Assembly: GCA_038045185.1 (NCBI GenBank)
Contig: JBBSYO010000020.1
Coordinates: 1 to 52,734 of the forward strand
Source of the DNA: Nanobdellota archaeon
GTDB taxonomy: Archaea; Nanobdellota; Nanobdellia; Pacearchaeales; GW2011-AR1
Direction: 5' to 3'
Length of the DNA stretch: 52,734 nt
The first letter of the stretch is position 1; every line of letters begins with the position of its first letter. The notes under the pieces were generated by a model, which ran no database searches, was not told the origin of the DNA, and was given only the letters and a program-made list of their open reading frames with translations. The translations under genes were made by a program, and so were the position numbers. Positions 1,303 to 21,826 of this stretch are shown here, piece by piece.

Positions 1303-3642
1303 ATGGATAAGAAACAAATGTCTGAAGAGGACATAAAACTCAGGTTCGTAACGCCTGCCTTGCTTGAAAAAGGTAAGTGGAGCAAAGAACAAGTCAGAAT
1401 GAACGTGTACTTCACGGACGGCAAGATTATGATTGCGGGGAAGACTGTTAAACGTGGAAAAAGAAACTTTGCAGATTATATCTTGCAATATAAATCTAAT
1501 AAACCCCTTGCAGTTATAGAAGCCAAAGATAACAATCACTCTGTAGGAGAGGGCATGCAACAAGCCCTAGAATATGCTGAAAAACTCGATTTACCCTTTG
1601 TCTTTACTTCAAATGGCGATGGCTTCGTATTTCACGATAGGGAATCAGGAAAAGAAATCAACCTTTCCTTGAGCCAATTTCCTTCCCCTCAAGAATTATG
1701 GGAAAAATACAAAAAATACAGAGGAATAACCGAAAAAATTGAAGAGATTATAACGACAGACTATTTTTACGAGCCCGGTTTCAAGCAGCCACGTTATTAT
1801 CAAAGAATTGCTATTGATCGAGCTGTTGATGCCGTAGCCAGAGGCCAAAAACGCGCCCTTCTAGTCTTAGCAACAGGAACAGGCAAAACTTATGTTGCGT
1901 TTCAAACTATATGGAGGCTTAGAAAAGCAGGACTCGCAAAACGTGTGCTCTATCTTGCAGATAGAAACATCCTTATAGACCAGCCAAAAAATAACGACCT
2001 GAAGCCACTTTCCAAAGTCATAACCAAAATTGAAAATCGTAAAGCAGACACATCTTATGAAGTTTACCTAGCACTATATCAAGCAGTTTCAGGCGAGGAA
2101 GATATAAAGAACATTTACAAACAATTTTCGCCGAGCTTCTTTGACTTGATAATTGTGGATGAGTGTCATAGAGGCAGCGCAAAAGCCGAATCACAATGGC
2201 GTGAGATTTTGGAGTATTTTGCGCCGGCTGTTCAATTAGGCATGACTGCTACACCTAAAGAAACAAACAAAATATCCAATATGGATTATTTTGGAAAGCC
2301 GCTGTATACTTATTCACTTAAACAAGGCATAGAAGACGGATTTTTAGCGCCGTACAAAGTTATAAAGGTCGCAATTGACAAAGACGTGCACGGATACAGA
2401 CCAAAGCAGGGAGAAACTGATAAATTCGGCTATGAAATCCCTGACTTTGTGTATACTAACCGCGAATTCGACAAGACGATTGTTATAGACGAACGAACAC
2501 AAGTAGTTGCTCAAAAAATAACAGAGTTTCTTAGAAATACCGATCGATTTGCCAAAACCATCGTGTTCTGTGCAGACATAGAACACGCTGAACGCATGCG
2601 AAAAGCCCTGATTAACGAAAATTCTGACCTCTATAAGCAAAACTCCAAGTACATTATGAGAATAACTGGAGATGACAATATTGGCAAGAGACAAATAAGC
2701 AATTTTATTGACCCTGCTGAGAAATATCCTGTAATTGTCACAACCTCTAAACTAATGAATACCGGAGTTGACGCACAAACCTGTAAATTAATAGTTCTTG
2801 ATGCCCCGATACAATCCATGACTGAATTCAAACAAATTATCGGTAGAGGAACGCGTATACGCGAAGATTATGGCAAGTATTATTTCACCATTATGGACTT
2901 CAGAAACGTTACTAATCAGTTTTCTGACCCTAACTTTGATGGCGAGCCTGTACAAATCTACACCATCAAACAAGACCAAGAACTAAAAGAACAACAGACT
3001 AAAGAACAATCCGTTCAGCAGGGAGAGCGCATCCTCGTAAGCCCAAGTATCGAGTATAGCGAAGAACCTGAAACAATCAAAAAGTATTACGTAAAGGAAG
3101 CTGAAGTTGAGATCATAAACGAACAGGTGCAGTATCTTGGTCCCGACGGTAAACTCATAACCGAATCGCTTAATGACTTCACCAAAAAGAACGTTAAAGA
3201 ACGGTTTAGAAGTTTAAACGACTTTATTCAGCAATGGAACATTGTTGATCAAAAACGAACACTTATAGAAGAGCTTGAACGTGAAGGTCTGCTTATTGAC
3301 GCTCTGAGAGAGGAAATTCCACAAGGAAAAGACTATGATGCCTTTGACTTAATCCTTCATATTGCCTACGGTCAAAAGCCCCTCACACGAAAAGAGCGAG
3401 CAAGAAAGGTCCAGAAAGATGCCTACTTCAGCAAATATGGCGACAAAGCGCGCAAGGTTATCGACGCCCTTCTTGAGAAATACGGCGATGAGGGCATAGA
3501 AAACCTAGAAAATCCCGAAGTCCTAAGAGTCAACCCCCTCAACAAACTCGGTCGCCCCCTTGAAATCATGAAACTCTTCGGTGGCAAAGAAGGTTATAGA
3601 AAGATGATTGAAGAGATTGAGAGCAGGTTGTATAAACAGTAA
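1303..3642 (+). CDS. hsdR: type I restriction enzyme R subunit (HsdR)
   Basis: 779 aa. N-terminal PD-(D/E)xK-like FADYIL...IEAKD, Walker A LATGTGKT, motif II DECHRG, helicase C-terminal motifs (TTSKLMNTGVD, QIIGRGTR), and an EcoEI-R-type C-terminal helical tail. Confidence 0.9.
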   Translation: MDKKQMSEEDIKLRFVTPALLEKGKWSKEQVRMNVYFTDGKIMIAGKTVKRGKRNFADYILQYKSNKPLAVIEAKDNNHSVGEGMQQALEYAEKLDLPFVFTSNGDGFVFHDRESGKEINLSLSQFPSPQELWEKYKKYRGITEKIEEIITTDYFYEPGFKQPRYYQRIAIDRAVDAVARGQKRALLVLATGTGKTYVAFQTIWRLRKAGLAKRVLYLADRNILIDQPKNNDLKPLSKVITKIENRKADTSYEVYLALYQAVSGEEDIKNIYKQFSPSFFDLIIVDECHRGSAKAESQWREILEYFAPAVQLGMTATPKETNKISNMDYFGKPLYTYSLKQGIEDGFLAPYKVIKVAIDKDVHGYRPKQGETDKFGYEIPDFVYTNREFDKTIVIDERTQVVAQKITEFLRNTDRFAKTIVFCADIEHAERMRKALINENSDLYKQNSKYIMRITGDDNIGKRQISNFIDPAEKYPVIVTTSKLMNTGVDAQTCKLIVLDAPIQSMTEFKQIIGRGTRIREDYGKYYFTIMDFRNVTNQFSDPNFDGEPVQIYTIKQDQELKEQQTKEQSVQQGERILVSPSIEYSEEPETIKKYYVKEAEVEIINEQVQYLGPDGKLITESLNDFTKKNVKERFRSLNDFIQQWNIVDQKRTLIEELEREGLLIDALREEIPQGKDYDAFDLILHIAYGQKPLTRKERARKVQKDAYFSKYGDKARKVIDALLEKYGDEGIENLENPEVLRVNPLNKLGRPLEIMKLFGGKEGYRKMIEEIESRLYKQ

Positions 3643-4287
3643 TCAAGGTTTATAGTTTTGTAGATATTCTATCTTAGGTAAAAAAGGATATTTTTTTAGC
3701 AAGGTAGAATCATTATGAACCTCTTTCAATAGATCATCTGTCCAGTGTTTTTTATCTGCAGTGATGATCGTTAATCTGTTATTATTATGTTCCTGAACTG
3801 CAGAAGCAAGAGTTTGGGCGTCAGAGTCATTAGGACTAAGCCAAGTAAACAAACAGCTTTTAAGATTAAAATCTATTTGACTAACCGGAATTACCACTGT
3901 ATCAATATAATTTTTAATAAAATAGTTTATTCTAGCTTGCAATAGATTAAAGATATTATTAACATCTTCTATAAATTTCTTTTTATCTTGGCTACTTTCA
4001 TACCCAAAAATTAACCTCGTAACAATTAACTTATCCTGCGGGAAAAGTATTTTAGACTGTTCACTAGAAAACAAATCGTAATTACTATCTTGAATTTTTT
4101 GGTTAAATTCAAAGAGTATTGCTTTTTGTCTTTTCAGCCATTTTGGAAGATTTACACTTACTATGTAGTCGCATAACAGAAAAGAATCTTTTTTGTTATC
4201 TACGAATAATTTTGCTCTTTCTTCTAAAGGATGTCCAAACGGCATACAAAAATAAATCGGAAGATTCATATCTAAAAAATATTTCAT
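3643..4287 (-). CDS. PIN-like domain protein (divergent, with insertion)
   Basis: N-terminal YFLDMN acidic strand. C-terminal NDSDAQTLASA...LTIITADKKHW matches the PIN C-terminal half pattern (D..A.A ... T.D..F/W). Overlaps the upstream wHTH gene by 1 nt. Confidence 0.4.
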   Translation of the reverse strand: MKYFLDMNLPIYFCMPFGHPLEERAKLFVDNKKDSFLLCDYIVSVNLPKWLKRQKAILFEFNQKIQDSNYDLFSSEQSKILFPQDKLIVTRLIFGYESSQDKKKFIEDVNNIFNLLQARINYFIKNYIDTVVIPVSQIDFNLKSCLFTWLSPNDSDAQTLASAVQEHNNNRLTIITADKKHWTDDLLKEVHNDSTLLKKYPFLPKIEYLQNYKP

Positions 4288-5348
4288 TACTCATTCTCCA
4301 ATCCTTCAAGAATTACCTTTTGGATATTCTCTGAAGAGTTATCTTTCGAAATCTTTATTTCGAATGGATTTGTTTCTTGCGCAACAGATTCTAATTCTTC
4401 GATATAGGACTTATAATTCATTTCCTTAAAATTGAGATTCAATTCTCTTATTTGTTGAAACAATTGTTTATTATCTTTATCAATAAATTCTTCCGAATCT
4501 TTAAATGAAGTAAAGGTTGTAAGAGTATCCCAAAGCTGATTCAATGTACCCTTAATTATCTCTAAATTCTGAATTTCATTTTTTTTGTTTAATAGAGCTA
4601 TTTGAGAATTGCTAATGAAATTTTCAAAATCGAAATAAAACTTTTCTAATTTTAATGGATAGTTCAATGATAAATCTAACAATGCTCTTTGAATGTCTGC
4701 GTTTATATCTTTATTTGTGTCCTTATTTATTTTGTGCAGTAAGAATAATCTTGCTAAATTTTCCTTAGCCGAATAAAACTTCATGTCATATTTTTGATAT
4801 TGATATTCTCTCTCTTGGTAAGCAATACCTGTATGTTTTTTATCTTTCAATATTTCTTTAATACACTTAATAATATCTAATTTTTCTTTAGGTTCTTCAA
4901 TCATACTCAAGATGTTTTGATTACTTGAATCAAAACTGGCACAGGTAGTCATGCCATAATGAAAGTTTAAAATAGGAAGATTAAGTTTGCAAGATTTTAT
5001 CACGTCTACGGCTATTTTTTGCAGAGCCGTTTTTGATAAGTCTGTCCCCTTTTCTTTTTTCCATTCTTTTTCAATTTCACTTAAAATATAAAGAGTTTTT
5101 GTCCTTATTTCTTTACTAAATGGAATACTATAATATACGGGATCATCAGTCCTTCTATAAACTTTCATTTTATCGGTACTTAAAATTTCATTCACCGCAC
5201 CGTCTTCTTTTAGTTTTTCTAAATAACTATTTGTTGTTGGCCAGTTAGAACCAACTTTATTTGCGATCTCGTTAATTCCCTTAGGTCCTTCAAATAGGAA
5301 ATCCAAAATTTCTTTTTTTATCTGGCTGGATGTTTTTCTAATTGTCAC
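4287..5348 (-). CDS. winged-helix (MarR/ArsR-like N-terminus) protein, 353 aa, otherwise unknown
   Basis: N-terminal ILDFLFEGPKGINEIANKVGSNWPTTNSYLEKLKEDGAV resembles a wHTH. Coupled to the downstream PIN-like ORF. Confidence 0.45.
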   Translation of the reverse strand: MTIRKTSSQIKKEILDFLFEGPKGINEIANKVGSNWPTTNSYLEKLKEDGAVNEILSTDKMKVYRRTDDPVYYSIPFSKEIRTKTLYILSEIEKEWKKEKGTDLSKTALQKIAVDVIKSCKLNLPILNFHYGMTTCASFDSSNQNILSMIEEPKEKLDIIKCIKEILKDKKHTGIAYQEREYQYQKYDMKFYSAKENLARLFLLHKINKDTNKDINADIQRALLDLSLNYPLKLEKFYFDFENFISNSQIALLNKKNEIQNLEIIKGTLNQLWDTLTTFTSFKDSEEFIDKDNKQLFQQIRELNLNFKEMNYKSYIEELESVAQETNPFEIKISKDNSSENIQKVILEGLENE

Positions 5349-5500
5349 AAGAAATCACCCCTTTTCATAGCTATTTAACCCTTTCTTTGTTTATAAAACT
5401 TACTAAGGTAGGCGATATACTTAACAATCCTTGAACAACAAAGTTTAAATACCCTTTATTGTTCAGAACCAAGGCTTTCAAAAAAGGCTAAAAAAATAAA

Positions 5501-5752
5501 ATGACAATATCTCGTAAAGTTAAGCGCGTCATCGATGGAGACACCTTTCAAACATACAGGAAAGTAAATGGAAGCAACTATGTTAGACTTCCGGGAGTAA
5601 ATGCTCCTGAGTTGCATCAGTTTGGAGGCAGACAAGCCAGAGATAGACTAAAGCGACAAATTCAAGGCAAGGTTGTAACGTTGCAACCTGTTGGCAGGTC
5701 ATATAATAGGGTAGTTGCGAGGGTCAGACAGAATCGGAGGCTTGTTAGATAA
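5501..5752 (+). CDS. miniature staphylococcal-nuclease (SNase/thermonuclease)-like protein
   Basis: VIDGDTF...VRLPGVNAPE...GR..NRVVARV follows the SNase core pattern (V.DGDT, RL.G.DAPE, YGR). Only 83 aa, so the usual C-terminal helices are absent. Confidence 0.6.
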   Translation: MTISRKVKRVIDGDTFQTYRKVNGSNYVRLPGVNAPELHQFGGRQARDRLKRQIQGKVVTLQPVGRSYNRVVARVRQNRRLVR

Positions 5753-5940
5753 TGGTTCAAAAATTATTTGGATTAGGTTTAGGAGCAACAGGAACAGCCG
5801 CAATATTGATAGTGGGCGGAATACTGGTCACCCAATTTGCTTCAGAGGGTTTAGGGGAATTTGCCATATTTGGGGGAATCATGTTAGCGTTAATCTTTGG
5901 AGGGTTAGGTGTTTTAGGCATTCTAAGGAGGTTGCTTTAA
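5752..5940 (+). CDS. small two-TM glycine-rich membrane peptide
   Basis: 62 aa with two hydrophobic G/A/L/I-rich segments. The start overlaps the stop of the SNase-like ORF (taATGg). Confidence 0.4.
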   Translation: MVQKLFGLGLGATGTAAILIVGGILVTQFASEGLGEFAIFGGIMLALIFGGLGVLGILRRLL

Positions 5941-6195
5941 ATGATAGAAGAGAGAAAAGCAGAGGAGCTTATAGATGACCGAAACAAGTGGAAAATTTAT
6001 TTTGATTTAGAAATTCCAAACGCTGGATTAAGCATAAATAATAGAGGTGATTCAAGTGTTTTGGTTAAATTTACAATTAATCGCAAAGAGAATAATCGTT
6101 TATCTAATGAAGATATTGAGAAACTAAAGAACGATTTGAAAGATTTGGGAAAATTCAGAATAGTTAAACAAGGAAAAGAGTTATTGGAGAAATGA
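5941..6195 (+). CDS. hypothetical soluble protein (84 aa)
   Basis: ORF starts the nucleotide after the preceding stop. Charged, no motif recognised. Confidence 0.35.
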   Translation: MIEERKAEELIDDRNKWKIYFDLEIPNAGLSINNRGDSSVLVKFTINRKENNRLSNEDIEKLKNDLKDLGKFRIVKQGKELLEK

Positions 6196-6196
6196 A

Positions 6197-6388
6197 ATGC
6201 CTGGGGATGTAAACAATAAGATAGTTATTGGATTAGAGTCAACAATATTTTTAGTCTCTTTAATAATAGTCATCTTGCATAAGGTAGGAAATTTGTTTAT
6301 TCCGTGGGTCACACCCATATCTTGGTTAATTTTCTTAGGGACAGTTGGTTATTTTATAATTAGGATGATACAGAATATTAACCGTTAA
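6197..6388 (+). CDS. small two-TM membrane peptide
   Basis: 63 aa with two hydrophobic helices. Starts 1 nt after the preceding stop. Confidence 0.4.
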   Translation: MPGDVNNKIVIGLESTIFLVSLIIVILHKVGNLFIPWVTPISWLIFLGTVGYFIIRMIQNINR

Positions 6389-7695
6389 TTACTAAAACTC
6401 TCTTGTAAAACTGACTCCACCAGCCTTTCCGAATTTTCTTGGTTTTCTTTAACTTGTTTTTCAAGTTCATCGCACAAAGCCATTAGCGTGTCGACTTTTT
6501 CAACGATACGTTTTTGCTCGGCAAGGGGCGGAAGCGGAACTTTTAGATTGCTTAGTGCAACTCCATTAACGTTTGGTTGTCCCGTGCCCATAGATTCTTC
6601 AAATAATTGTTGCCAATACAAACTAGAACCGAGAAATAACTTAACGTACGCGGGATTTATTGTCTTATTCGGAATTGCTCTAATCAAGTACGAAGCGAAA
6701 ACAGCTTTAACGTTGACATTCTTGACCATATAGGACTTTCCAATTGTTCCTCCGGTTCGGGCAATTAAAATATCGTTTTCGTTTAATAAGTATTTTTCAG
6801 ATTCTGAATTATCTATTTGACAACTTGGAACTTCTAACCAGTTAACTTTATCATTTTGAATATCTGTTATTCTCAACAGCCTTATGCCCTTTGTATTGTG
6901 GACTGCGGAAGCAGTATAGCCGTAATGAATTCTTTGGCAAACCTCCCCTAGTTTCGTCCATTCCCATCCCTTCGGCAACCCATAAGGCTTTTCCTCATCA
7001 GAGATTGGAGCAAGTGGCTTATCATTTCTGATCTTACCATCTTTGATGAGTCTGTCTTTTTCTGTCTTAATTTTCTTTAACAACTCTGACGCTGGCTCGT
7101 CTTGCGGGTCTTGCTGAACAAGCTTGCCTTGCACGGCGTCTTGGAGGATGCGCTGACGGAGTTTGGAGATATAAGATTCGTTTAAGTTATCAATCTCGTC
7201 TAATTTGGTTACTTTTTCAGAAATAGAATTTATTTTATTTCTGATTTTTACTTGCATCTCTAAATCAGGCAATTTTATCTCTAACGGAAGAAATTTATTA
7301 GGTTTTAGCTCTGTTTTAATTCCGCCTTTAATCTGGCTATTTATTGCCTCTTTGAAATTTTTACTTTTTAAGAAAGTCTTGAAGTATTCGATGTCTATTC
7401 TAGATTCATCAAACAAATAAGCTGAATAATGTATTGTGGCCAAAATGTCTTCTTTACCTTGATAAACTGAAACTGCCCCTTTCTCAACATTAATACCAGA
7501 AATTACCAAATCTCCTTTCTTTATCAATATCATATCAGTGTTTGTTGGCTTATCTGTTAAGTGTATTTCTCCTGAGAAATCAATTTTGTTTAACCTTCTC
7601 AAATTCATTCTATTTGCTTCTAAGGGTTTTATTCTACTTTCTCTTTCTTTTAAGAATGAGGAAATTTTAATTTTCTTCCAATTGAACATTGTCAA
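6385..7695 (-). CDS. hsdS: type I restriction-modification specificity subunit (HsdS)
   Basis: 436 aa with two variable halves separated by conserved helical spacers. The C-terminal PLPPLAEQKRIVEKVDTLMALCDELE and central LPDLEMQVKI match HsdS conserved regions. Confidence 0.85.
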   Translation of the reverse strand: MTMFNWKKIKISSFLKERESRIKPLEANRMNLRRLNKIDFSGEIHLTDKPTNTDMILIKKGDLVISGINVEKGAVSVYQGKEDILATIHYSAYLFDESRIDIEYFKTFLKSKNFKEAINSQIKGGIKTELKPNKFLPLEIKLPDLEMQVKIRNKINSISEKVTKLDEIDNLNESYISKLRQRILQDAVQGKLVQQDPQDEPASELLKKIKTEKDRLIKDGKIRNDKPLAPISDEEKPYGLPKGWEWTKLGEVCQRIHYGYTASAVHNTKGIRLLRITDIQNDKVNWLEVPSCQIDNSESEKYLLNENDILIARTGGTIGKSYMVKNVNVKAVFASYLIRAIPNKTINPAYVKLFLGSSLYWQQLFEESMGTGQPNVNGVALSNLKVPLPPLAEQKRIVEKVDTLMALCDELEKQVKENQENSERLVESVLQESFSN

Positions 7696-7735: not shown

Positions 7736-8095
7736 TCAGATTTCCTTCAAAGATAATCTTTGAGTTTTTTCCATTTTAATTAAGTCTGTGATTTCTTTAT
7801 CAACTATGCCTTTAATTATTGCAGAATTAAATCCCATGTAGTTTATCATTGAATACTTGTTGTAAATGTCTTTTTGTTTCATTAAATCAATTAGATCTGT
7901 TTTGTCTTCTGGATAAACTACTTTATCATATTCTTTAATTGAACATTTCATCTTTGAGCCAAACAAAAGACTTGTGTTCTTTTGTTTTGCGAGTTCAATA
8001 ATTTTAGTTTTTAGCTCTTCTTCTTTTGCTTCTATTTCTTTCTTTAAAGATTGGAGCTTTTCATATTCATCAACTAAACCATTGTCATTACTCAT
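7736..8095 (-). CDS. hypothetical protein (119 aa, N-terminal coiled coil)
   Basis: ORF in the hsdM...hsdS operon. 8-nt overlap with the upstream ORF and 40-nt gap to the hsdS start. Confidence 0.4.
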   Translation of the reverse strand: MSNDNGLVDEYEKLQSLKKEIEAKEEELKTKIIELAKQKNTSLLFGSKMKCSIKEYDKVVYPEDKTDLIDLMKQKDIYNKYSMINYMGFNSAIIKGIVDKEITDLIKMEKTQRLSLKEI

Positions 8096-8585
8096 TTTTA
8101 TCCTTATAAAATTTATCTAAAGCCATCTTTCCAAATTTAGGATTTTTTTTGATTTCTTCTTCAATTCCCTTAATATGTTCGTCCATTATTTTTTGGTGCA
8201 TTACAAATCCTAAGCCAAATAAGTAATCTGCAGTCTCTTTTTTACTTAAATTTTTAACTTCTTTCTTAACATCATTCCATATTTTGTTATCAAATATCTC
8301 TCTAGCTATGGAAAATAACTCATCGTCTAATTTTGAAATTTCTTCTTCTGTATCCTCGCCGTAGATTTCTTTATGCATCTCGGCAGGGGTCTTGTTTGTG
8401 TCTGTTTGCTTTCGTTCATTATTGTACCAATTCATGAAGTCGTTCATTTGCTTTTCTATTTCTACTGATGTTTGTGCTTCTTTATTATTTTTAAGATATT
8501 CTTCAAAAGCCATTTCAATTTCCCTTTTTGCTGGTTTGAATGCGTCTCTTTCTTTATTTTCTTTATTGTTCATGTTAGTAGTCAT
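8088..8585 (-). CDS. hypothetical charged protein (165 aa)
   Basis: ORF in the hsdM...hsdS operon; no motif recognised. Confidence 0.4.
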   Translation of the reverse strand: MTTNMNNKENKERDAFKPAKREIEMAFEEYLKNNKEAQTSVEIEKQMNDFMNWYNNERKQTDTNKTPAEMHKEIYGEDTEEEISKLDDELFSIAREIFDNKIWNDVKKEVKNLSKKETADYLFGLGFVMHQKIMDEHIKGIEEEIKKNPKFGKMALDKFYKDKNE

Positions 8586-8614
8586 TTTTGTTGAAATTTG
8601 AAGGTATTTTATAA

Positions 8615-9496
8615 TTATCCGTGGTCAATTTTCCCCTCATATTTGAAGATATGGGCAAACTTGGCATTTTCACCAATTAATAATTTCAATTGTTCTCTAA
8701 CCCTTGACTCTGTTTCTCCAGAAGTAATAATTATATCATTAAAAACTGCAAAATAACCTGTGTTTACTTTTAATTCTAAAAGCCTTTTTCTTATTTTTCT
8801 TGCATTTGACTTGCTTAACTCTTGATGATAAACGCCCGTTAGATTAGGTTCTTTTTTTAATAGTCTATGTATTTCATCCCAATTTCTCATGCGATTATTC
8901 TCATTCTTTAAATAAAATCTTAGCAGTTCTTCGCTAGATTCTTCTTTCTCATTTAGTGGTTCATCTAAAGATTCAATTAATCCAAACTTGCTTTTTGCTT
9001 TAATATAATCTCTAGATAAAGCATCTACCATTCCCCTTCCAAATGTCATGTTATACCCGTTTAAAATACTTGAATAAACGATTTTTCCACAGAATGGAAA
9101 AAGAATTGTTTTTGCCATATACGGTTCAAATGGCAAAATATCCCTTATTTCGTCTTGCAACCCATAAACATGATATGCTTTTGATTCGTCGCCTAAGAAA
9201 ACAGATTTCTCTTTTTCATGCAAGATGTAAAAATCTCCTTTAACCAGTTTTTTCCATTGACTCACTATGTTTAACTCGGTTTGATTAAATCTTAACGGAT
9301 TTTCTTTAACAAATTCATCAACCATGTGCGGGTAACTAGATAATTTATCATCAAGTCTGGCTACCTCTTCAGCATATTGCCCATTAAAATCTGGAGTTGT
9401 AAGATTCTTTATTATATGGAACTTTTTATTTATGAAATGATATAATCCGTCACGTAACTTATAAAATAACTTAACTTCTTCATTGGATAGTTTCAT
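8615..9496 (-). CDS. hypothetical protein (293 aa)
   Basis: Largest embedded ORF in the hsdM...hsdS operon. 4-nt ATGA-type overlap with the upstream ORF; no motif recognised. Confidence 0.45.
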   Translation of the reverse strand: MKLSNEEVKLFYKLRDGLYHFINKKFHIIKNLTTPDFNGQYAEEVARLDDKLSSYPHMVDEFVKENPLRFNQTELNIVSQWKKLVKGDFYILHEKEKSVFLGDESKAYHVYGLQDEIRDILPFEPYMAKTILFPFCGKIVYSSILNGYNMTFGRGMVDALSRDYIKAKSKFGLIESLDEPLNEKEESSEELLRFYLKNENNRMRNWDEIHRLLKKEPNLTGVYHQELSKSNARKIRKRLLELKVNTGYFAVFNDIIITSGETESRVREQLKLLIGENAKFAHIFKYEGKIDHG

Positions 9497-9876
9497 TTAA
9501 TCACCTTATCCAATTTTAGTAGCCTTCTATATTCTTCATTTATTAAATCCCACCAGTTTTCTGCAGTGTCTACTTGTTCATCTTCCCTTGTAGAAAGCCA
9601 ATAGGTTTCAAAATTATAGGCTCTGATTTCTCCAATATAAATTATTTTATTACTATTTAATACGGCATAAATAGTAGCGATTGCCGGTGCGGGCCAGTCA
9701 ATACAGTCATCAAGTTCGCTTTTATCAATGCTATAACAGACATATAATCTTTGTTTTATCTTTTTTGTATTGGGTAGTTTAGGCACATTTTTTAATAATT
9801 CTTCTGCCCTACTCTCTTTTAATGCCCATCTTTGTAAACTTCTTGCTCTCTGAAGACTAATTTTATATCGGCTCAT
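9493..9876 (-). CDS. hypothetical protein (127 aa)
   Basis: ORF in the hsdM...hsdS operon; no motif recognised. Confidence 0.4.
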   Translation of the reverse strand: MSRYKISLQRARSLQRWALKESRAEELLKNVPKLPNTKKIKQRLYVCYSIDKSELDDCIDWPAPAIATIYAVLNSNKIIYIGEIRAYNFETYWLSTREDEQVDTAENWWDLINEEYRRLLKLDKVIK

Positions 9877-9885
9877 TTTTACCTC

Positions 9886-10347
9886 CTAAATAATTTCCCA
9901 TTCCCAATAATCCTCCATATATCTAGTATATCTAAATAGGTCAAGTTCTTTTGCGTAATTTAAATATTTTTTATAGTCTCTTTGCTGTAAAAAATATGAG
10001 ATCTGTGCTGCAGAAATAGTATTATCAAATGTTTTCTTAATAGTAATAGAGTTGTTAAAGTTTTGCATTGCCATCTTTTCATTAGTATTAAATAAAAGTA
10101 GACCCATTAGATAATAGGCTTCCCAATGGTTTGACCATTTTTTGATAATCTTCTCCGTTAACTGAAAATCTTCTTTTTCTTTATTAACATGTGAAAGTGC
10201 TCCTGCTTTAATCAGAAGAGCATCTATGTTTTCAACGTCTTTTTTAAGAATTTCATTGCATAATTCTATGGCTTTATTCTCATTTTCTGAATAATTATGA
10301 TAATATCCTGCTTTATTTAGTAGCTTAGAAATATTTTTGTCATCCAT
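9886..10347 (-). CDS. TPR-like helical repeat protein (153 aa)
   Basis: Repeated A/Y/L-spaced helical pairs (KAIELCNEILKKD...ALLIKAGAL..., WEAYYLMGLLLF) suggest TPR. 8-nt overlap with the upstream ORF. Confidence 0.4.
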   Translation of the reverse strand: MDDKNISKLLNKAGYYHNYSENENKAIELCNEILKKDVENIDALLIKAGALSHVNKEKEDFQLTEKIIKKWSNHWEAYYLMGLLLFNTNEKMAMQNFNNSITIKKTFDNTISAAQISYFLQQRDYKKYLNYAKELDLFRYTRYMEDYWEWEII

Positions 10348-10597
10348 GTTTTATTTCTCCTAACATCTTCCAGAGATTATCATCTATTGTTTTGTCTTTT
10401 TTATTTTCTTTTATCGACTTTATTATTTTATCATAGAAACTAGGATAATTCACTTTTATCCTGTTTAGTTTATCTTTAATGTGTTCTAGTTTACATTGAT
10501 TTGAACAAAATAACAATGCTTTTTCATCCGAGAATTGAGGCGATAGCCAGATGCCTTCGTTTGCTTGCTTTTTGCAGGTTTTACATGTTTCACCCAT
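10340..10597 (-). CDS. TRASH/YHS-like zinc-ribbon protein (85 aa)
   Basis: C5-x2-C8-x22-C31-x3-C35 fits the TRASH spacing C-x2-C-x19-22-C-x3-C. Starts 2 nt after the hsdM stop. Confidence 0.45.
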   Translation of the reverse strand: MGETCKTCKKQANEGIWLSPQFSDEKALLFCSNQCKLEHIKDKLNRIKVNYPSFYDKIIKSIKENKKDKTIDDNLWKMLGEIKHG

Positions 10598-10599
10598 TC

Positions 10600-12036
10600 T
10601 TATTTTTCTCCTTGAATTTGACTAATAATTTCTTGAGTTCTTTTGATATTTGCTTGTATTCTTTCAATAATCTCTTCTTTAGAAAGCTCCCTTTCTGCTT
10701 CTGGTTTTGTGGGGTTGTTTATGTCCAAATTATAATTTCTTTTGATGATTTCATCTTTTGAAACCTTCCAGCATAAATGTTTAAATTTTTCATTTTCGCG
10801 GTTTGTCCACCATTCTTTCTCTAATTGAAACTCTTCATGACGAATTGGTTTTGTTTTATTATAAGTTACGGCGTCTTGGGGCAATGGATGCTCAAAGTAC
10901 CACACGTCTTTTGTTCCTCGTGAGTCTTTTTCGAAGAACAAGAGGTTGGTACGAATACCGGTGTAGGGGCTGAATACTCCATTGGGCAGACGTACTATAG
11001 TATGAAGATTAAATTCACTTAGCAACTTTTCCTTTATTCGCGTCTTTACACCCTCCCCAAACAAGAAGCCGTCAGGCAAAACTAGACCGCACTTCCCTCC
11101 ATCACGCAAGAGCTTCATAATAAGAACGAGAAACAAATCGGCTGTCTCTCTTGTTTTAAACTCGGCAGGGAAGTTGTTTTCGATACCGGTTTCTTCAGCT
11201 CCACCAAACGGAGGATTAGTGACCACAATATCGACCATATCTTTTGAGGTGTAATCTATTATAGGTCTTGATAACGAGTTATCATGGCGAATGTTAGGTA
11301 CTTCAATATCATGTAAAATCATGTTAGTCATACCCAACAAATGAGGCAAGGGTTTCTTCTCTATTCCCCTTATAGTCTTCTCTAGAATTTTTTGTTCTTC
11401 TACACTCTTTACATCTTTCTTAAGATGGTTAATAACCGATATAAGAAAGCCACCCGTTCCACAGGCAGGGTCCAGTACGATGTCTCCTAATTGAGGGTTA
11501 ACCATGTCAACGATGAATTGGGTAACAGGTCTTGGAGTGTAAAATTCTCCTGCGCTTCCCGCACTTTGCAACTCTTTTAAGATTGTTTCATAAATATCGT
11601 TGAATAAGTGTCTATCTTCAGCGCTTGTAAAATCAATTTCATTTATTTTGTTAATGACTTGGCGAATAAGGATGCCTTTTTTCATATAATTGTAGGCGTC
11701 TTCAAAGACTTGTTTTACAATATATCCCCTTTGGTCTGTCTTTTCATCAAGCTTCAGATTTTTTAGGGTTTTGAATAGATCATCATTGATAAAATCAAGC
11801 AGTTCGTCTCCTGTTATTCCTTCGGGATTCTCCGCCCACTTTCTCCACCTAATTTTTTCTGGTAAAGGACTTTTGTAGTTTTCATCTTCTGCTTCCCTCT
11901 CTTTTTCCATAGAGTCAAAAACTTTCAAGAAGATCATCCAAACCATTTGAGAGATACGTTGAGCATCTCCATCTACTCCTGCATCTTTACGCATGATGTC
12001 TCTTACTGATTTTACTATGTTGCCTAGATGAGCCAT
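10600..12036 (-). CDS. hsdM: type I restriction-modification N6-adenine DNA methyltransferase (HsdM)
   Basis: 478 aa. Motif I DPACGTGGFL, motif IV VVTNPPFGG, and an HsdM N-terminal helical domain. Confidence 0.92.
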   Translation of the reverse strand: MAHLGNIVKSVRDIMRKDAGVDGDAQRISQMVWMIFLKVFDSMEKEREAEDENYKSPLPEKIRWRKWAENPEGITGDELLDFINDDLFKTLKNLKLDEKTDQRGYIVKQVFEDAYNYMKKGILIRQVINKINEIDFTSAEDRHLFNDIYETILKELQSAGSAGEFYTPRPVTQFIVDMVNPQLGDIVLDPACGTGGFLISVINHLKKDVKSVEEQKILEKTIRGIEKKPLPHLLGMTNMILHDIEVPNIRHDNSLSRPIIDYTSKDMVDIVVTNPPFGGAEETGIENNFPAEFKTRETADLFLVLIMKLLRDGGKCGLVLPDGFLFGEGVKTRIKEKLLSEFNLHTIVRLPNGVFSPYTGIRTNLLFFEKDSRGTKDVWYFEHPLPQDAVTYNKTKPIRHEEFQLEKEWWTNRENEKFKHLCWKVSKDEIIKRNYNLDINNPTKPEAERELSKEEIIERIQANIKRTQEIISQIQGEK

Positions 12037-12080: not shown

Positions 12081-12752
12081 TTAAAGTCTCTTCTGCTTAT
12101 CCCGCCAACTCCAATACTCTTCTTTCCCTATAACCACATGATCGACAACATTTATGTCAAGAGAGTTGCCTGCATTGATTATTCTTTTTGTAATATCTAA
12201 GTCTTCCCTTGAAGGAGTTGGGTCTCCGGAAGGATGATTATGAATCAAGACTATTTTAGAAGCTGAATTCTTCAGCACGGGCTTGAATATCGTCTTGGCA
12301 TCAAAAATAGTTGAATCCATAGTTCCCTTAGAAATCAACTGCTCGCCGATAATGTGATTCTTTGTATTAAGCATTAAAACAATAAAATGCTCTTGCTTCT
12401 CATCCTTCAATCTATCATGAAACAAATCAAAGACATCCTTGGCACAAGTTATCTTTTTAACTGGGTGTTTGGCTTGTGAGCGCCTCTTGCCTAATTCGGC
12501 CATGGCAAGCAATTGCATAGCTTTGCTGGGACCGATACCTTTGATGCTTTGAAGTTCAACTAAAGAACATTCGAATAACTTATCTATGCCATGTTCTGCA
12601 ATAAGTCGATTTGACATATCAATAACGTTCTCGCCTTTACTTCCTGTCCTCAAGATTATAGCGAAAAGCTCGGCATCGCTTAGCGCTTGCGGACCATGTT
12701 TTAGGAAACGCTCTCTCGGCCTGTTCTGCTTCGGCATGTCATGGATTCTCAT
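12081..12752 (-). CDS. radC: RadC-like JAB/MPN domain protein
   Basis: 223 aa. N-terminal MPKQNRPRERF, an HhH-like IKGIGPSKA, and the JAMM motif HNHPSGDPTPS. Confidence 0.9.
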   Translation of the reverse strand: MRIHDMPKQNRPRERFLKHGPQALSDAELFAIILRTGSKGENVIDMSNRLIAEHGIDKLFECSLVELQSIKGIGPSKAMQLLAMAELGKRRSQAKHPVKKITCAKDVFDLFHDRLKDEKQEHFIVLMLNTKNHIIGEQLISKGTMDSTIFDAKTIFKPVLKNSASKIVLIHNHPSGDPTPSREDLDITKRIINAGNSLDINVVDHVVIGKEEYWSWRDKQKRL

Positions 12753-12782: not shown

Positions 12783-14045
12783 TTAACTCAATCCCTCATT
12801 TATTTTCTTTAAATTCCAAAGAATAACTTTTTGCAATGTTTGCAGGAGTTTTTCATCTTCTCTTTTTTTTGATCCTTTTGTATACCCCATATATTCATCC
12901 AATAATCCAAACGGGATGTCGAAAATTGGAATGCCTCTTGATTGCAATAAATGAAATGTTATTAATCTCGTTGTTCTGCTGTTTCCATCTGCAAACGGAT
13001 GAATGTGCTGGAATTCATTGTGGAAATAAACGGCAAAATTTAAAATTTCCCTAATAGATGATTTTTCTTTTCTGACAAACTCATCATACTTCTCAAATAA
13101 AGCATCTAATTCTCTTTTGATATTCTCTGCTTTAGTGATTTTAAAATCAGGATTCCCTTTAATATAGACTTCATCTGTTCTTATTTTGCCTGCAATTTTC
13201 GGAACATTTCTCATAGCTATTCCATGATAATTAAGAACAGACGCGATATTCAAAACCTTCTTTTCCGCGCTATCTTTCAGCATTTGCAGGATTGCTTCCT
13301 GATAATTCTTTACTTCATCAACATCCAGGCTCTTTAGATTGCCCGGGATAACCTTGTCCTGCAGTATTTTGAAAGTCTCTGATAATGTTATAGGATTTCC
13401 CTCTAATGAAAGGCTATGATAAACAAAAGAAATTTCAAAATCCCTTACAACTTTTCTGTATCCAGCCTCATCTTTTTTTCTTAATCTCTTAAAAATATTT
13501 AATTCCCTTTCTATCTCTTTGCTGTAAACATGGGTGCTTTCTGTTATAACTTCATGCTTATAACCAAAGTAAATAAGAAGATTGTTCAAAAGGATATTAT
13601 AGAATATCTTTGCCCTCAAGGGTTTTCTTGAAATAATAAGGACCAATCCAAATCTGTTTAATATTTCCAGGTACTTTTTAAAAGTTCTTGGGTGAGTATC
13701 CGCGTCTTTGGGGGTAATCTCCTCTTTTTGCAAAGCTTTGCTCAAAAATGCCGCAAAATTCTTGTCAAGTAAATAATTGTAACTAACATTGTTTTTAAGA
13801 CAATGCTGAATTATTCCATATAAGATTTCTGCCTTTTTGTTCATGTCTGCTTCAAAGCCATATTCAGTTTTTCTAAGGAGACCAAGTGCAACCAACTCTC
13901 TAAGCTGTTTATGTATTGCGTGATAATCTCCCTCAGATTTATTAAACCCCCTAACAACATCCACAGGCTTCATTGGGGCTCTGTTCTTATAGATTAATTC
14001 AAAAATGTCATATTTGGTGACCATAACAATACAGACTCTTTTCAA
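12783..14045 (-). CDS. Fic/DOC family protein with N-terminal wHTH-like region
   Basis: Fic motif HPFADGNSRTTR (HxFx[D/E]GNxRxxR). 420-aa ORF; the true start may be the internal MVTKYD. Confidence 0.85.
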   Translation of the reverse strand: MKRVCIVMVTKYDIFELIYKNRAPMKPVDVVRGFNKSEGDYHAIHKQLRELVALGLLRKTEYGFEADMNKKAEILYGIIQHCLKNNVSYNYLLDKNFAAFLSKALQKEEITPKDADTHPRTFKKYLEILNRFGLVLIISRKPLRAKIFYNILLNNLLIYFGYKHEVITESTHVYSKEIERELNIFKRLRKKDEAGYRKVVRDFEISFVYHSLSLEGNPITLSETFKILQDKVIPGNLKSLDVDEVKNYQEAILQMLKDSAEKKVLNIASVLNYHGIAMRNVPKIAGKIRTDEVYIKGNPDFKITKAENIKRELDALFEKYDEFVRKEKSSIREILNFAVYFHNEFQHIHPFADGNSRTTRLITFHLLQSRGIPIFDIPFGLLDEYMGYTKGSKKREDEKLLQTLQKVILWNLKKINEGLS

Positions 14046-14192: not shown

Positions 14193-14633
14193 CTAATTAT
14201 TTGAATTCCTTTTAAGAGTAACCCTTTCTTCTTTTTGGTCAAAGATAATGACAAACTTATCAAAAAAGCCTGCTCTCCCAAGCAAAACAGGGATTTCCTG
14301 GCCGTCAAGGACAATTCCTTTGTTCAAGATAACTTTTACAGGCAGGTCAAATTTATATGTTTCATGAGGCTTTCCAATTTCTAAGAACAGTTTAGACTGC
14401 ACTGCTGGAACTTTTCCTCCGATACCAGCCGCATCTTCCTTTTTGCCGCTTAAATCAACCCCTAATAATTCTGCTACTTCTTCGGGTATTGCTGAGACAT
14501 CTGCTCCAGAATCGAGCAGAGCTACAAAAGTATATTTCCCGCCTGCCCCAGATAAGGTAACGGGAATTGAAGGAGACTTTACTTCTATATTATTTGGTCT
14601 TTTTACACGTTTGTAACGAAAGGCAAGGCTCAT
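14193..14633 (-). CDS. retropepsin-like (clan AA) aspartic protease
   Basis: 146 aa with ALLDSGADVSAIP (D-S/T-G-A active-site signature). Confidence 0.7.
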   Translation of the reverse strand: MSLAFRYKRVKRPNNIEVKSPSIPVTLSGAGGKYTFVALLDSGADVSAIPEEVAELLGVDLSGKKEDAAGIGGKVPAVQSKLFLEIGKPHETYKFDLPVKVILNKGIVLDGQEIPVLLGRAGFFDKFVIIFDQKEERVTLKRNSNN

Positions 14634-14843
14634 TTAGAAGATCATTGTTTCTTCACTTGGTACGCGGGCAATAATAAATTTCTTCCCGCCCGATAGAGTC
14701 TTTGCTCTCTCGACAACTTCCTTTAAGTTTCTGCCGTGTGCAAGTATTCTGTTTTCAGCTACAGCTATCCACTCCCCGGCATATTTACTAATATCGGTTT
14801 CCATAAAATAATTATAGGCAAGTTCCTGGGATGATTTTGTCAT
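14634..14843 (-). CDS. small partner protein (DUF5678-like by recollection)
   Basis: 69 aa with GEWIAVAENRILAHG...IIARVP. Its stop abuts the start of the aspartic protease ORF. Confidence 0.4.
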   Translation of the reverse strand: MTKSSQELAYNYFMETDISKYAGEWIAVAENRILAHGRNLKEVVERAKTLSGGKKFIIARVPSEETMIF

Positions 14844-14994
14844 ATTATTCTTTCTTAATGTCCTTATTTAAAGGTTCTCAAGCCTTCCAAGAAGTAGCAA
14901 CAAAGACAACTTTAGAAGAATACCTCCTTTTATTCATAGTATCAAATATACTCATTAATATATAAAGATTGTTCTTAACTATTGCTCGAGAATA

Positions 14995-15020
14995 TCATGG
15001 ATTCTCATGTGATTGATTAG
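14995..15020 (-). repeat. displaced radC 5' end, remnant C (MRIHD plus upstream-like bases)
   Basis: tcatggattctcatg is identical to the radC start region. The minus strand reads MRIHD and then ILEQ-stop. Confidence 0.5.
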
Positions 15021-15328
15021 AGGTTCATCTCCTCAAGCTCCTGGCTGACTAGGGATTCAGCTTCTTCTAACTGGAAAGCAACATCGGGATATTTTTTAAT
15101 GCTCTTATTTTTGAAGAATTCAATCGCAACCCTCTTTATATCCTGCTTATCTTCCTCATTCCAGTTGAATTCCTTCGCGCTTTTAATCGCAGAAGCCCGA
15201 TACTCGCTTTCCTCATAGAGCAAATGGCTCATTGACTCAGGCTTGTTTGTGTAACGAGCAAGCATCTTATGCAATACAACGTTGCCTATGATTTTCCCAA
15301 GCGTCTTTAAAGCACTATTTTTTCCCAT
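15017..15328 (-). CDS. hypothetical protein (103 aa)
   Basis: ORF overlapping the 3' end of the upstream nucleotidyltransferase ORF by 22 nt; no motif recognised. Confidence 0.35.
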   Translation of the reverse strand: MGKNSALKTLGKIIGNVVLHKMLARYTNKPESMSHLLYEESEYRASAIKSAKEFNWNEEDKQDIKRVAIEFFKNKSIKKYPDVAFQLEEAESLVSQELEEMNL

Positions 15329-16128
15329 TTTGACTCGAGAATCTCCTTATCTGTTTTTTCAGACAAGTTTCTTATATACATTAGTGCCCGCTTTTTTTCC
15401 AATTTAGACGCGCTGTTGCTTTTCAGCTGTTTCATAAGCCTCTCGCCCAGTTCGTTCCTGACGCTCTCATTTAACATTTTGTTATCCACAATTTTCCTTA
15501 ATAAAAGCCTAACAAGCATTACATTTCTGAGCGATTGGTAAATTTCCCTGCCTGCTGAATCTTCGTCATCAATGTCGCTCCAGTCCAGCTTCATCCGAAG
15601 GTCTAATTTTGACAGATCTGCCTTTGGGAGAAGATTGAACGTGCCGTGAATTGCCTTAAAATCCTTTAACTGGTAAATTAAAGAAGGGCTATGGGAGTAT
15701 TGGGACAAAATTGAATCTTTCGAGTAAAGTTGCATATCAAGGTTAAGGGCTGCTTTTTTCCCTTTTTTCTCAATCGTTTCTATCAACTCTCTCTTTTTGC
15801 TCTTTGGCAGTTCTTTCTTTGTCACTACAATCACATCTATATCATTATATTCCTTATAATTGCTCTGCACCGCAGAACCGCAGATAATTATCGAATCTAA
15901 GTTAGGCACGTTATCTAATACAATCTTTTTTATTTTATTCTCAATTGCCCTTGCTTTTTGGTTGTATTCTATCCTATTCAGGATTTCGCCTGTATTTATT
16001 TTTCCTATCTCCAGCAGCTTGGGTCTTATGCTCTTGCTGAGAATATTTGCTTCATTCTGAGTAAGACTAACCCCACTAAGTTTCTTGGCGATTATTTCAT
16101 TCTCCCTTTCTGTCATTATCTTAACCAT
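15307..16128 (-). CDS. nucleotidyltransferase-fold (MNT-like) protein with helical C-terminal region
   Basis: IICGSAVQSNYKEYNDIDVIVV matches the minimal NTase signature GS-x(9-11)-D-x-D. Confidence 0.6.
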   Translation of the reverse strand: MVKIMTERENEIIAKKLSGVSLTQNEANILSKSIRPKLLEIGKINTGEILNRIEYNQKARAIENKIKKIVLDNVPNLDSIIICGSAVQSNYKEYNDIDVIVVTKKELPKSKKRELIETIEKKGKKAALNLDMQLYSKDSILSQYSHSPSLIYQLKDFKAIHGTFNLLPKADLSKLDLRMKLDWSDIDDEDSAGREIYQSLRNVMLVRLLLRKIVDNKMLNESVRNELGERLMKQLKSNSASKLEKKRALMYIRNLSEKTDKEILESKWEKIVL

Positions 16129-19038: not shown

Positions 19039-20031
19039 CTAAGACAATCTCTTCATTTCCAGCCAACTAATAAGTTTAGTCTTATCGGGAGGCACATCTT
19101 TCCTTGAATAATATACAAAATCCATTCTTTCATAGCATTTAGGACAATAACAAACTCGTCCTTCAGAAGCTTTTATGGAAATTGATTTTGCTATACTTGA
19201 CTTTAGAAATTTCTTTTTTCTCCTTGAATAAGCGCCGTAATATCTTGCAAGCTTCTGATTCTTTTCTGGAACATGCTGAATAATAGCAGAAATAAAATCA
19301 TGCACAAGCATGATTTTATAGTGTATCTTTTCATCATGATCTTTGTAATAGAATTTAACAGCCTCTTTATTGTAGGCAATTATCCTTGAGTTTGCTATTG
19401 CTGGATGCCGAACATATCTGCCCAAATATCTGGCTAAGCCCTTGCGAGAGGATATTCTATCCTCTCTGACATAAACACAAAAGCCATTAGGATATTTTCT
19501 ATATGCTTCCTCAATAATTCCTTTAGGAAGATATTTCTTCAGTTTTTTGAGGATATTATATTCCCATTTTTTATGCAGAGCATTATATGGAATATAATTT
19601 CCCAACGGAACAAATTTTCCCTGTTCATCAAATCCCCCTTCAGTAACAATAGTATGAACATGGGGTTGATTCTTCAAATCTTTTCCGAATGGATGAAACA
19701 CTTCAATAACTCCAGGAATTAAATCTCTTCTTTTCATATTAGAAAATACTTCTCGAATTGTTTTATATGCAACATCCATCAAAATCTTGTACAGCTTTCT
19801 ATCTTCTTGAAAATATTTCCAGAGCATATCTGGAATTCCAAAGACAAGATGCCTATGGAAGATATTTTTCTCTAATTTTTCAGCTAACATTGATGCCCAT
19901 TGGTCAGCATACCTCTTGCCACAGCAAGAGCATAGCCTTGAATTGCAGCCAAATGGGAGAAATCTATATTCGTTGCAATTCTTGCAATAATACCAAAATC
20001 CTCCTCTGCTTTCATCTTTGCAAGAAAGCAT
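19039..20031 (-). CDS. IS91-family (HUH Y2, rolling-circle) transposase
   Basis: Zn-binding CKNC...CNSRLCSCCG, HUH-type QPHVHTIVTEGG, and Y2-region RYLGRYVRHPAIANSRI and ARYYGAYSRR. Confidence 0.8.
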   Translation of the reverse strand: MLSCKDESRGGFWYYCKNCNEYRFLPFGCNSRLCSCCGKRYADQWASMLAEKLEKNIFHRHLVFGIPDMLWKYFQEDRKLYKILMDVAYKTIREVFSNMKRRDLIPGVIEVFHPFGKDLKNQPHVHTIVTEGGFDEQGKFVPLGNYIPYNALHKKWEYNILKKLKKYLPKGIIEEAYRKYPNGFCVYVREDRISSRKGLARYLGRYVRHPAIANSRIIAYNKEAVKFYYKDHDEKIHYKIMLVHDFISAIIQHVPEKNQKLARYYGAYSRRKKKFLKSSIAKSISIKASEGRVCYCPKCYERMDFVYYSRKDVPPDKTKLISWLEMKRLS

Positions 20032-21725: not shown

Positions 21726-21797
21726 GGCGGTTGTAGTGTACCGGTAGCACACCAGCTTGTGGCGCTGTTAGAGTGGGTTCAACTCCCACCTTCCGCT
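21726..21797 (+). tRNA. tRNA-His (GTG) with encoded G-1; two U-U mismatches in the acceptor stem
   Basis: D-arm GTGT/GCAC, anticodon loop TTGTGGC, T-arm GTGGG-TTCAACT-CCCAC. Acceptor GCGGTTG versus CTTCCGC mismatches at 5:68 and 6:67. Confidence 0.6.
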
Positions 21798-21826
21798 TTC
21801 ATTGAGAAAAGGAGTTGAACAAGAGA

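Follow-up and report, generated by a model that had tools for sequence, protein, structure and literature searches.

Six genes embedded between hsdM and hsdS of a Nanobdellota archaeon: a reshuffled cassette with candidate roles in defence

What are six further genes doing between hsdM and hsdS, the genes for the methyltransferase and specificity subunits of a type I restriction–modification (R-M) system? The question arises from a contig of 52,734 nucleotides (nt) from a Nanobdellota archaeon (JBBSYO010000020.1, assembly GCA_038045185.1; this whole stretch is called the window below), in which six open reading frames (ORFs), here named A to F from hsdM towards hsdS, fill that space. Genes that lie inside type I, BREX and Hma systems have a documented record of supplying defence functions, as with PrrC, TgvAB, Ronin and the PADLOC candidates, and known defence systems are reported to be scarce in DPANN archaea (PMC12988326). 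The original prediction took the six genes for a single module, transcribed as one operon and functionally tied to the methyltransferase/specificity complex. Here we find that relatives of three of the six genes recur inside type I operons of other loci, that the six do not form one conserved unit, and that, by analogy with other embedded genes, A–F may be regarded as candidates for a new anti-virus defence layer. The locus is laid out as follows, with lengths in amino acids (aa) and E-values after the names of database families.

10600..12036, minus strand: hsdM, methyltransferase of the type I R-M system, 478 aa (Pfam N6_Mtase 4e-76 and HsdM_N 5e-14; PADLOC MTase_I 7e-202)
10340..10597, minus strand: A, 85 aa, TRASH/zf-FCS-type zinc-finger protein (CxxC-x22-CxxxC spacing with an FCS triplet)
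9886..10347, minus strand: B, 153 aa, TPR-like protein (weak TPR matches)
9493..9876, minus strand: C, 127 aa, alpha+beta fold (conserved family; AlphaFold2 model)
8615..9496, minus strand: D, 293 aa, member of a large unannotated family (homologues in archaea and bacteria; AlphaFold2 model)
8586..8614, minus strand: D–E intergenic gap, 29 nt, candidate internal leaderless promoter (TATA-like TTATAAAA)
8088..8585, minus strand: E, 165 aa, F paralogue with an extra N-terminal domain (hhalign to F)
7736..8095, minus strand: F, 119 aa, stand-alone C-terminal non-catalytic domain of PD-(D/E)XK proteins (homologues; fusions behind PDDEXK_1)
6385..7695, minus strand: hsdS, type I specificity subunit, 434–436 aa (Pfam Methylase_S 7e-22; PADLOC Specificity_I 1e-86)

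When the ORF list was derived anew, the coordinates, lengths, strand and junctions first described for the six ORFs were reproduced exactly, and the Pfam and PADLOC matches bear out hsdM and hsdS as the flanking genes. The junctions along hsdM/A/B/C/D/E/F/hsdS measure +2, −8, +9, −4, +29, −8 and +40 nt; the probable start of hsdS is the ATG at 7689, with a GGAG 10 nt upstream, and the F–hsdS gap is then 46 nt. On sequence evidence, the six ORFs are genuine conserved genes, each with homologues elsewhere (identities of 57–92% for C, 62–83% for F, 45–70% for A, 59–68% for B, 36–50% for D, and 34–45% for E), and the identical cassette was assembled independently in at least nine samples of the same population. 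The subunit set of the type I system is complete, with HsdM (N6_Mtase, HsdM_N), HsdS and HsdR all matched.

Whether C is tied to type I R-M elsewhere was addressed on 90 loci, with genes called in this analysis and profiles run iteratively, distinct loci being grouped at 95% identity. A same-strand type I gene is present, in whatever flank is available, at 15 of the 50 distinct C loci, and at seven of the 50 (the window, L099, L103, L131/132, L133, L152, and L161) C stands between two type I subunit genes; L101/134 is a further C locus counted as R-M-associated. Among C loci with at least 4 kilobases (kb) on both sides, 5 of 12 carry type I genes, compared with 6 of the 77 distinct loci of the D family that served as controls (Fisher p = 0.006). 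The original prediction had proposed looking for co-occurrence of the 127-aa and 293-aa families with hsdM/hsdS. For the former, C, the association is significant; for the latter, D, it does not hold, as 71 of the 77 loci have no type I gene nearby, the other six have an hsdM- or hsdS-like gene, and hsdR is found at none of the 77. The hsdM genes of the C loci belong to at least three families that are at most 32% identical to one another, while the C proteins are 55–67% identical, which argues that the association of C with R-M is not a single inherited insertion.

The same placement is seen for F and, less often, for A, which also lie between type I subunit genes (statistics were made for C only). 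Three architectures are typical: R ... A ... AlbA2 ... S-213-C-231-...-M with radC alongside in L152; S-C-F-...-SEC-C/TPR-AlbA2-M, again with radC alongside, in L099; and S-231-C-SWIM-F-51-NYN-111-M in L103. In L175/L176, F lies behind a WYL gene and between hsdS and hsdM, without C. Without exception, embedding is on the same strand, and the packing is tight: the median intergenic distance within the arrays is −4 to +3 nt, and the embedded gene upstream is no more than 10 nt away for hsdM in 12 of 15 cases and for hsdS in 10 of 12. Most of the type I loci with C or F arrays have a radC gene (59–68% identity) at their flank, as at L099, L114, L132, L136, L152, and L175, and the L115 array has one too. 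A view in which the cassette is unrelated to R-M, based on 74 genome loci of D and on the first three C contexts, which had no hsd genes, was considered and was reversed for C, F, and A by further C contexts and a metagenome scan.

The six genes do not travel together. The cassette is pieced together from at least three modules that move independently, namely A-B-C, D and the E/F pair, and all six genes together were found at no locus outside this population. The single module of the original prediction thus gives way to sub-blocks that recur apart and whose order and content are reshuffled. An A-B-C block is present in L088/L118, where it is preceded by PRiA4_ORF3 and an F/E chimera; the chimeric ORF (L088, 8889–9233, 114 aa) joins the first 16 residues of F to the C-terminal part of E, which points to recombination within the genes of these arrays. 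E, D, and A form a block in that other order at two loci, L007 and L011; the latter belongs to a metagenome-assembled Pacearchaeota genome, and there the block is flanked by a NERD/SLFN helicase, WYL, and Fic. The L083 array runs HRDC, A, AlbA2-wHTH (winged helix–turn–helix), F, TPR/SEC-C, C, GajB-like UvrD, and a second A.

The gene directly after C varies, and is usually joined to it by a 4-nt overlap. Counted over distinct loci, the following partner is the ∼226-aa family in 11, a zinc-ribbon plus SEC-C protein in eight, a SWIM/DUF6880 protein in five, F in five, and a UvrD helicase, A or D in one each; the C–D adjacency is seen in this population only. Fusions of C to WYL are encoded by 299-aa ORFs in L127 (766–1665) and L133 (9971–10870), and stand-alone WYL genes lie directly upstream of E/F-family genes in L011, L173, and L175/L176. 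AlbA_2-HATPase_c_4-wHTH proteins are encoded in 21 loci of related arrays, Bro-N genes are present as well, and the neighborhoods resemble defence islands, with a GajB-like UvrD helicase (4.5e-89), AbiEii, Fic/SoFic, a NERD-SLFN helicase, WYL, and CARF. As a separate observation, the ∼225-aa protein that follows C (L105, 4869–5546, and seven other loci) has N-terminal CxxC zinc ribbons and a C-terminal SEC-C motif, and SWIM and SEC-C zinc modules are strikingly common across the arrays.

What, then, are the six proteins? A–F have no significant match in Pfam, NCBIfam, PADLOC v2 (its PDC candidates included) or PHROGs. The best sub-significant PADLOC matches are AbiEi for D (0.019) and PDC-M67B for E (0.07), the other four having none. 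All six proteins are soluble and rich in lysine and glutamate, with a maximal 19-residue Kyte–Doolittle window of at most 1.25. The TRASH-type C-x2-C-x22-C-x3-C pattern first noted in the cassette is present in A with exactly that spacing (C5-x2-C8-x22-C31-x3-C35, with an FCS triplet), and A matches Pfam zf-FCS and zf-FLZ at E-values of 0.4–0.6, below the gathering score. Homologues of A (45–70% identity) occur in 25 related loci, with two copies inside the one L083 array. For the TPR-like fold proposed originally, B gives weak matches to NCBIfam TPR models (5e-6 and 8e-5, both far under the curated cut-offs) and to Pfam TPR_17 (0.11), none of them above its cut-off. A homologue 67% identical to B lies within the A-B-C block of L088/L118.

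For C and D, the structure prediction suggested at the outset yielded confident models, and known folds were identified for neither in the Protein Data Bank (PDB) or, in the case of D, in BFVD. The C family comprises 27 clusters at 57–92% identity and the 50 distinct loci. Its AlphaFold2 model (predicted local distance difference test score, pLDDT, 88.6; predicted template modeling score, pTM, 0.81) consists of a helix, a four-stranded sheet, and a long helix, for which Foldseek returns no fold match in the PDB (best E-value 0.66). Searched as profiles against the sequences of the PDB, C, D, and F gave no match. We also considered C as a divergent WYL domain, prompted by a local phmmer match and by the C-WYL fusions, and rejected this candidate: hhalign gives a probability of 0.1% against the co-occurring WYL proteins, and C has no Pfam WYL match. 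The D family is far larger, with 2407 cluster representatives (50% identity) at E < 1e-3, and its 74 genome loci are spread over many archaeal and bacterial phyla. In the D model (pLDDT 85), the N-terminus is helical, an OB-like barrel follows, and the C-terminus is alpha/beta; the model has no Foldseek match with E < 0.05 in the PDB or BFVD, and the central barrel shows weak similarity to the IF1/OB fold in Foldseek. In Firmicutes, the N-terminal domain of D, of ∼170 residues, forms the C-terminal part of ∼520-aa proteins without a recognized domain, and in P0135 and L069 it is fused to PRiA4_ORF3. A relationship of D to the usual partners that follow C was tried and rejected (hhalign below 1% against the SEC-C protein H225; no match above 50% for G226).

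E and F are paralogues (hhalign probability 97%, E-value 1e-10, 94 columns). The domain that they have in common is the non-catalytic C-terminal tail of ∼400-aa PD-(D/E)XK nucleases (L048, L088); in L048, F aligns only to residues ∼280–396, C-terminal of the PDDEXK_1 domain (15–257), and neither E nor F has a PDDEXK match or catalytic core. F-like proteins of 119 aa form more than 273 clusters at 62–83% identity, and the named relatives come from Pacearchaeota and Nanoarchaeota. The N-terminal domain of E is found again in a 416-aa protein of L175, and E is weakly similar to the C-terminal tail of DDE integrases (E-values of 0.004–0.02). As a side observation, the L048 region at 1723–7124, on a Nanoarchaeota contig, holds the nuclease with the F-like tail together with a frameshifted D homologue, and two Bro-N genes there flank a fragment in which HsdM_N is fused to Methylase_S.

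The signals around the genes bear on how the cassette may be expressed. Shine–Dalgarno sequences of the GGAG/GAGGT type precede A, C (GAGGT), and hsdS, and a weaker AAGGA precedes F; among the five genes examined (A, C, E, F, and hsdS), E has none upstream. A TATA-like octamer, TTATAAAA, is located at −29 to −22 of the ATG of E, in the 29-nt D–E gap, and just one other such octamer occurs within 7.6 kb of this strand. This is the geometry of a leaderless promoter, so E-F-hsdS may have a start of its own, served by a candidate archaeal leaderless promoter before E. The original prediction saw no obvious internal TATA; this does not hold, and with TTATAAAA in front of E its single-operon reading is not secure. 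At other loci, such motifs upstream of E/F genes are rare (two of six with gaps of at least 20 nt). Bacterial-type promoter and terminator scans are uninformative for an archaeon.

Taken with known embedded defence genes, and with the defence-type neighbors that the same modules have outside R-M, these results lead us to favor, with belief and doubt evenly balanced, the reading that A–F form an accessory array of sensor, adaptor or regulator proteins embedded in the R-M operon. C, F, and A are part of a pool that also holds the ∼226-aa family, SEC-C/SWIM zinc-finger, WYL, and AlbA_2-HATPase_c_4-wHTH proteins; this pool repeatedly occupies the gaps between type I subunit genes in related archaea, and elsewhere forms arrays adjoining other defence genes. 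Expression of the cassette would come about through read-through from hsdM together with translational coupling, the leaderless promoter before E being a possible addition that would also serve F and hsdS, and its products would be non-catalytic parts of an R-M-embedded defence layer ("guilt by embedding"), relying on zinc-finger, TPR, OB-like barrel, and nuclease-tail domains. C may be the conserved anchor, coupled through the 4-nt overlap to an interchangeable partner, here D, and the E/F domain may supply the contact surface that PD-(D/E)XK nucleases carry C-terminally. The output could be that of the type I enzyme, or D could have an effector activity that neither its sequence nor its fold reveals. 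This mechanism, with its sensor, adaptor, and regulator roles and C as anchor, is one that the logic of embedding suggests. A bolder version, which we consider rather unlikely, is that C-anchored arrays are an unrecognized DPANN immune layer using HsdM/HsdS as a platform, in which non-enzymatic sensors guard R-M against viral anti-restriction factors or recruit interchangeable effectors, modules being swapped by recombination at the start/stop overlaps. The sensors would then be C, with its new fold, the zinc fingers, TPR, and the E/F nuclease-tail domain, and the effectors D, the SEC-C/SWIM proteins, GajB-like helicases, and NYN or PD-(D/E)XK nucleases.

Several points weigh against the accessory-array reading. 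The D family is not linked to R-M elsewhere, and type I genes are absent from more than half of the well-flanked C loci, and R-M from about half or more of those whose context can be seen, so R-M is not required for C. The tie to the methyltransferase/specificity complex that was originally proposed thus stands in part: embedding, co-direction, tight packing, and the enrichment of C speak for it, and D and the C loci without R-M speak against it. Several of the R-M-linked C loci have a common hsdM family and a radC neighbor, and some may be orthologous and not independent events. The contexts come from metagenomic contigs, many of them short, with gene calls made in this analysis. No hydrophobic or membrane segment and no catalytic or toxin domain is recognizable in A–F, and the sensor/effector role first suggested finds no such chemistry in the six proteins. 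The TATA-like element that precedes E raises the possibility that hsdS is expressed independently of the hsdM transcript. Finally, the genes may lie together in a variable island because of how it recombines, and not because of function.

In the main rival, a real possibility if a doubtful one, the six genes are hitch-hiking cargo: independent accessory or conflict genes, such as pairs of C and a partner, with a function unrelated to the type I enzyme, which pile up in R-M operons that are transcribed constitutively, are prone to recombination and belong to variable islands. The same modules form arrays without R-M in L083, L088, L115, L125, L137, L139, L142, L162, and L173, R-M is hardly ever found near D, each locus has its own reshuffled set and order of genes, chimeric ORFs included, and in TgvAB there is a precedent for embedded genes that work independently of the surrounding R-M system. 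Base composition is also in line with cargo, as the GC content at third codon positions (GC3) is 0.24–0.29 in the cassette, compared with 0.35 in hsdM and hsdS, 0.39 in hsdR, 0.42 in radC, and 0.43–0.53 in core genes. The lower value in the cassette than in the hsd genes suggests that it was acquired after, and separately from, the hsd genes, from a lower-GC source. What cargo explains poorly is the enrichment of C in type I operons over controls, across at least three unrelated hsdM families, and the invariable same-strand embedding with start/stop overlaps to hsd genes, which ties expression of the array to R-M.

Three other explanations find less room. That the small proteins are a control module for the R-M system, regulating type I expression, assembly or activity (restriction alleviation or establishment control) with no added defence, is improbable in our estimate: regulator-type domains abound in related arrays (WYL upstream of E/F genes, the C-WYL fusions, and AlbA_2-HATPase_c_4-wHTH) and all six proteins are non-catalytic, but none of A–F has a DNA-binding helix–turn–helix, C is not homologous to WYL, and the modules are also present without R-M. 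The reading of the original prediction, one dedicated and co-evolved six-component system acting on the M/S complex, can point to tight junctions and to a block that is stable across the independent assemblies of this population; since the full set is confined to that population, D joins C only here, and the sub-blocks recur separately and in other orders, we hold it to be very unlikely. We give as little credence to a remnant of a virus, plasmid or other mobile element, such as captured anti-restriction genes or integron-type cassettes. The setting in a low-GC island with an IS91 transposase, the Bro-N genes of related arrays, and the similarity of E to integrase tails would fit such an origin. 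The original prediction had raised homologues in a virus backbone as a point to check, and C, D, and F have no relatives among 2.9 million viral contigs in three IMG/VR scans (plasmid collections were not searched). A search for insertion scars and flanking repeats around the cassette gave AT-rich chance matches only, E is only mildly acidic (isoelectric point 5.2), unlike DNA mimics, and integron-type attC sites (∼60–140 nt) are excluded, as the cassette junctions of −8 to +29 nt leave no room for them and hold no structured repeats.

How does the array compare with known embedded systems? Among the closest are the embedded-gene candidates (the PDC and HEC sets of PADLOC; Payne et al., bioRxiv 10.1101/2024.01.29.577857), in which extra same-strand genes are likewise nested between type I subunits and the association likewise recurs across different R-M families; a Fic gene matching SoFic/PDC-S04 lies just upstream in the window. 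Those systems are one- or two-gene enzyme systems, whereas the cassette is a six-gene mosaic of non-enzymatic proteins that match no PADLOC v2 model and come from DPANN-type archaea known only from metagenomes. Ronin (RonA with an HsdMS decoy; bioRxiv 10.1101/2023.04.06.535777), the model behind the idea of anti-anti-restriction, also links a small protein to hsdM/hsdS. RonA is, however, a 61-aa membrane toxin and Ronin is usually without hsdR, while here hsdR is intact and A–F have no hydrophobic segment. The anticodon nucleases PrrC and RloC are type I-embedded too, and the logic of an accessory layer tied to the R-M complex proposed for A–F is theirs. A–F have no P-loop, ABC-ATPase or anticodon-nuclease match in Pfam, NCBIfam or PADLOC, and PrrC, a single gene, is all but confined to type I loci, whereas embedding is seen at only ∼30–40% of the C loci. 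TgvAB is likewise a multigene block that interrupts a functional type I operon, and differs in its R-M-independent action and its DUF262/GmrSD nuclease domains, of which A–F have none. WYL-domain proteins of the BrxR/CapW type are regulators of defence operons. In related loci, WYL genes stand upstream of E/F genes (three contexts) or are joined to C (two), but none is present in the window, and C itself is not a WYL domain.

Compared with known embedded cases, what is new here is the non-catalytic make-up, the modular reshuffling between loci, and the families themselves, which are unannotated and include a fold, that of C, without a PDB match. Most accessory genes of DPANN archaea are unannotated, and this locus points to a reservoir of conserved unannotated families among them. 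Should A–F be functional add-ons, the principle of embedded defence would apply in archaea as well and would take in sensor or adaptor proteins that are not enzymes, new proteins would be at hand to test for interaction with HsdM/HsdS, and it would become easier to explain how symbionts with small genomes diversify their immunity by shuffling modules within one operon. Should they be hitch-hikers only, the locus would still document an unusual shuffling of genes inside an operon, with chimeric ORFs.

Three neighboring genes complete the picture of the R-M region.

1303..3642, plus strand (opposite to the cassette): hsdR, EcoAI/FtnUII-family restriction subunit, 779 aa (NCBIfam restrict_EcoAI 1140 bits, cut-off 550; Pfam ResIII, EcoEI_R_C, and HSDR_N)
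12081..12752, minus strand: radC, JAB domain, 44 nt upstream of hsdM (Pfam RadC 4e-43)
12783-14045, minus strand: Fic gene, upstream of radC/hsdM (PADLOC PDC-S04 5e-28, SoFic 4e-21)

Between hsdS and hsdR, at 3643–5348, lie a gene for a 353-aa winged-helix protein (DUF7342/HTH_5) and, abutting it, one for a protein of 214 aa; the same pair is found in L115 (twice) and in L136, adjoining radC. Four small plus-strand ORFs of 83, 62, 84, and 63 aa at 5501–6388, the first weakly SNase-like, run convergent with hsdS and are conserved only in assemblies of the same population. On the other side, upstream of Fic, two abutting pairs of small genes occupy 14193–16128, the first encoding a DUF5678 protein (69 aa) and a retropepsin-like aspartyl protease (146 aa), the second a nucleotidyltransferase (273 aa) that overlaps a 103-aa ORF; both pairs may be toxin–antitoxin-like modules.

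The GC content is 0.27–0.40 over the first ∼22 kb of the window (the 1–23000 region) and 0.40–0.48 beyond, and a tRNA-His gene (21726–21798) and an IS91-family transposase gene (19039–20031, minus strand) lie near the boundary. Together, the GC shift, the tRNA gene, and the transposase suggest that the whole R-M region sits within a genomic island. The contig carries genes for the RFC large subunit and for the archaeal PheRS alpha and beta chains, which mark it as archaeal, and the named relatives of F make a DPANN host likely. On this otherwise clearly archaeal contig a DisA-type diadenylate cyclase is encoded at 46451–47575 (NCBIfam 2e-88).

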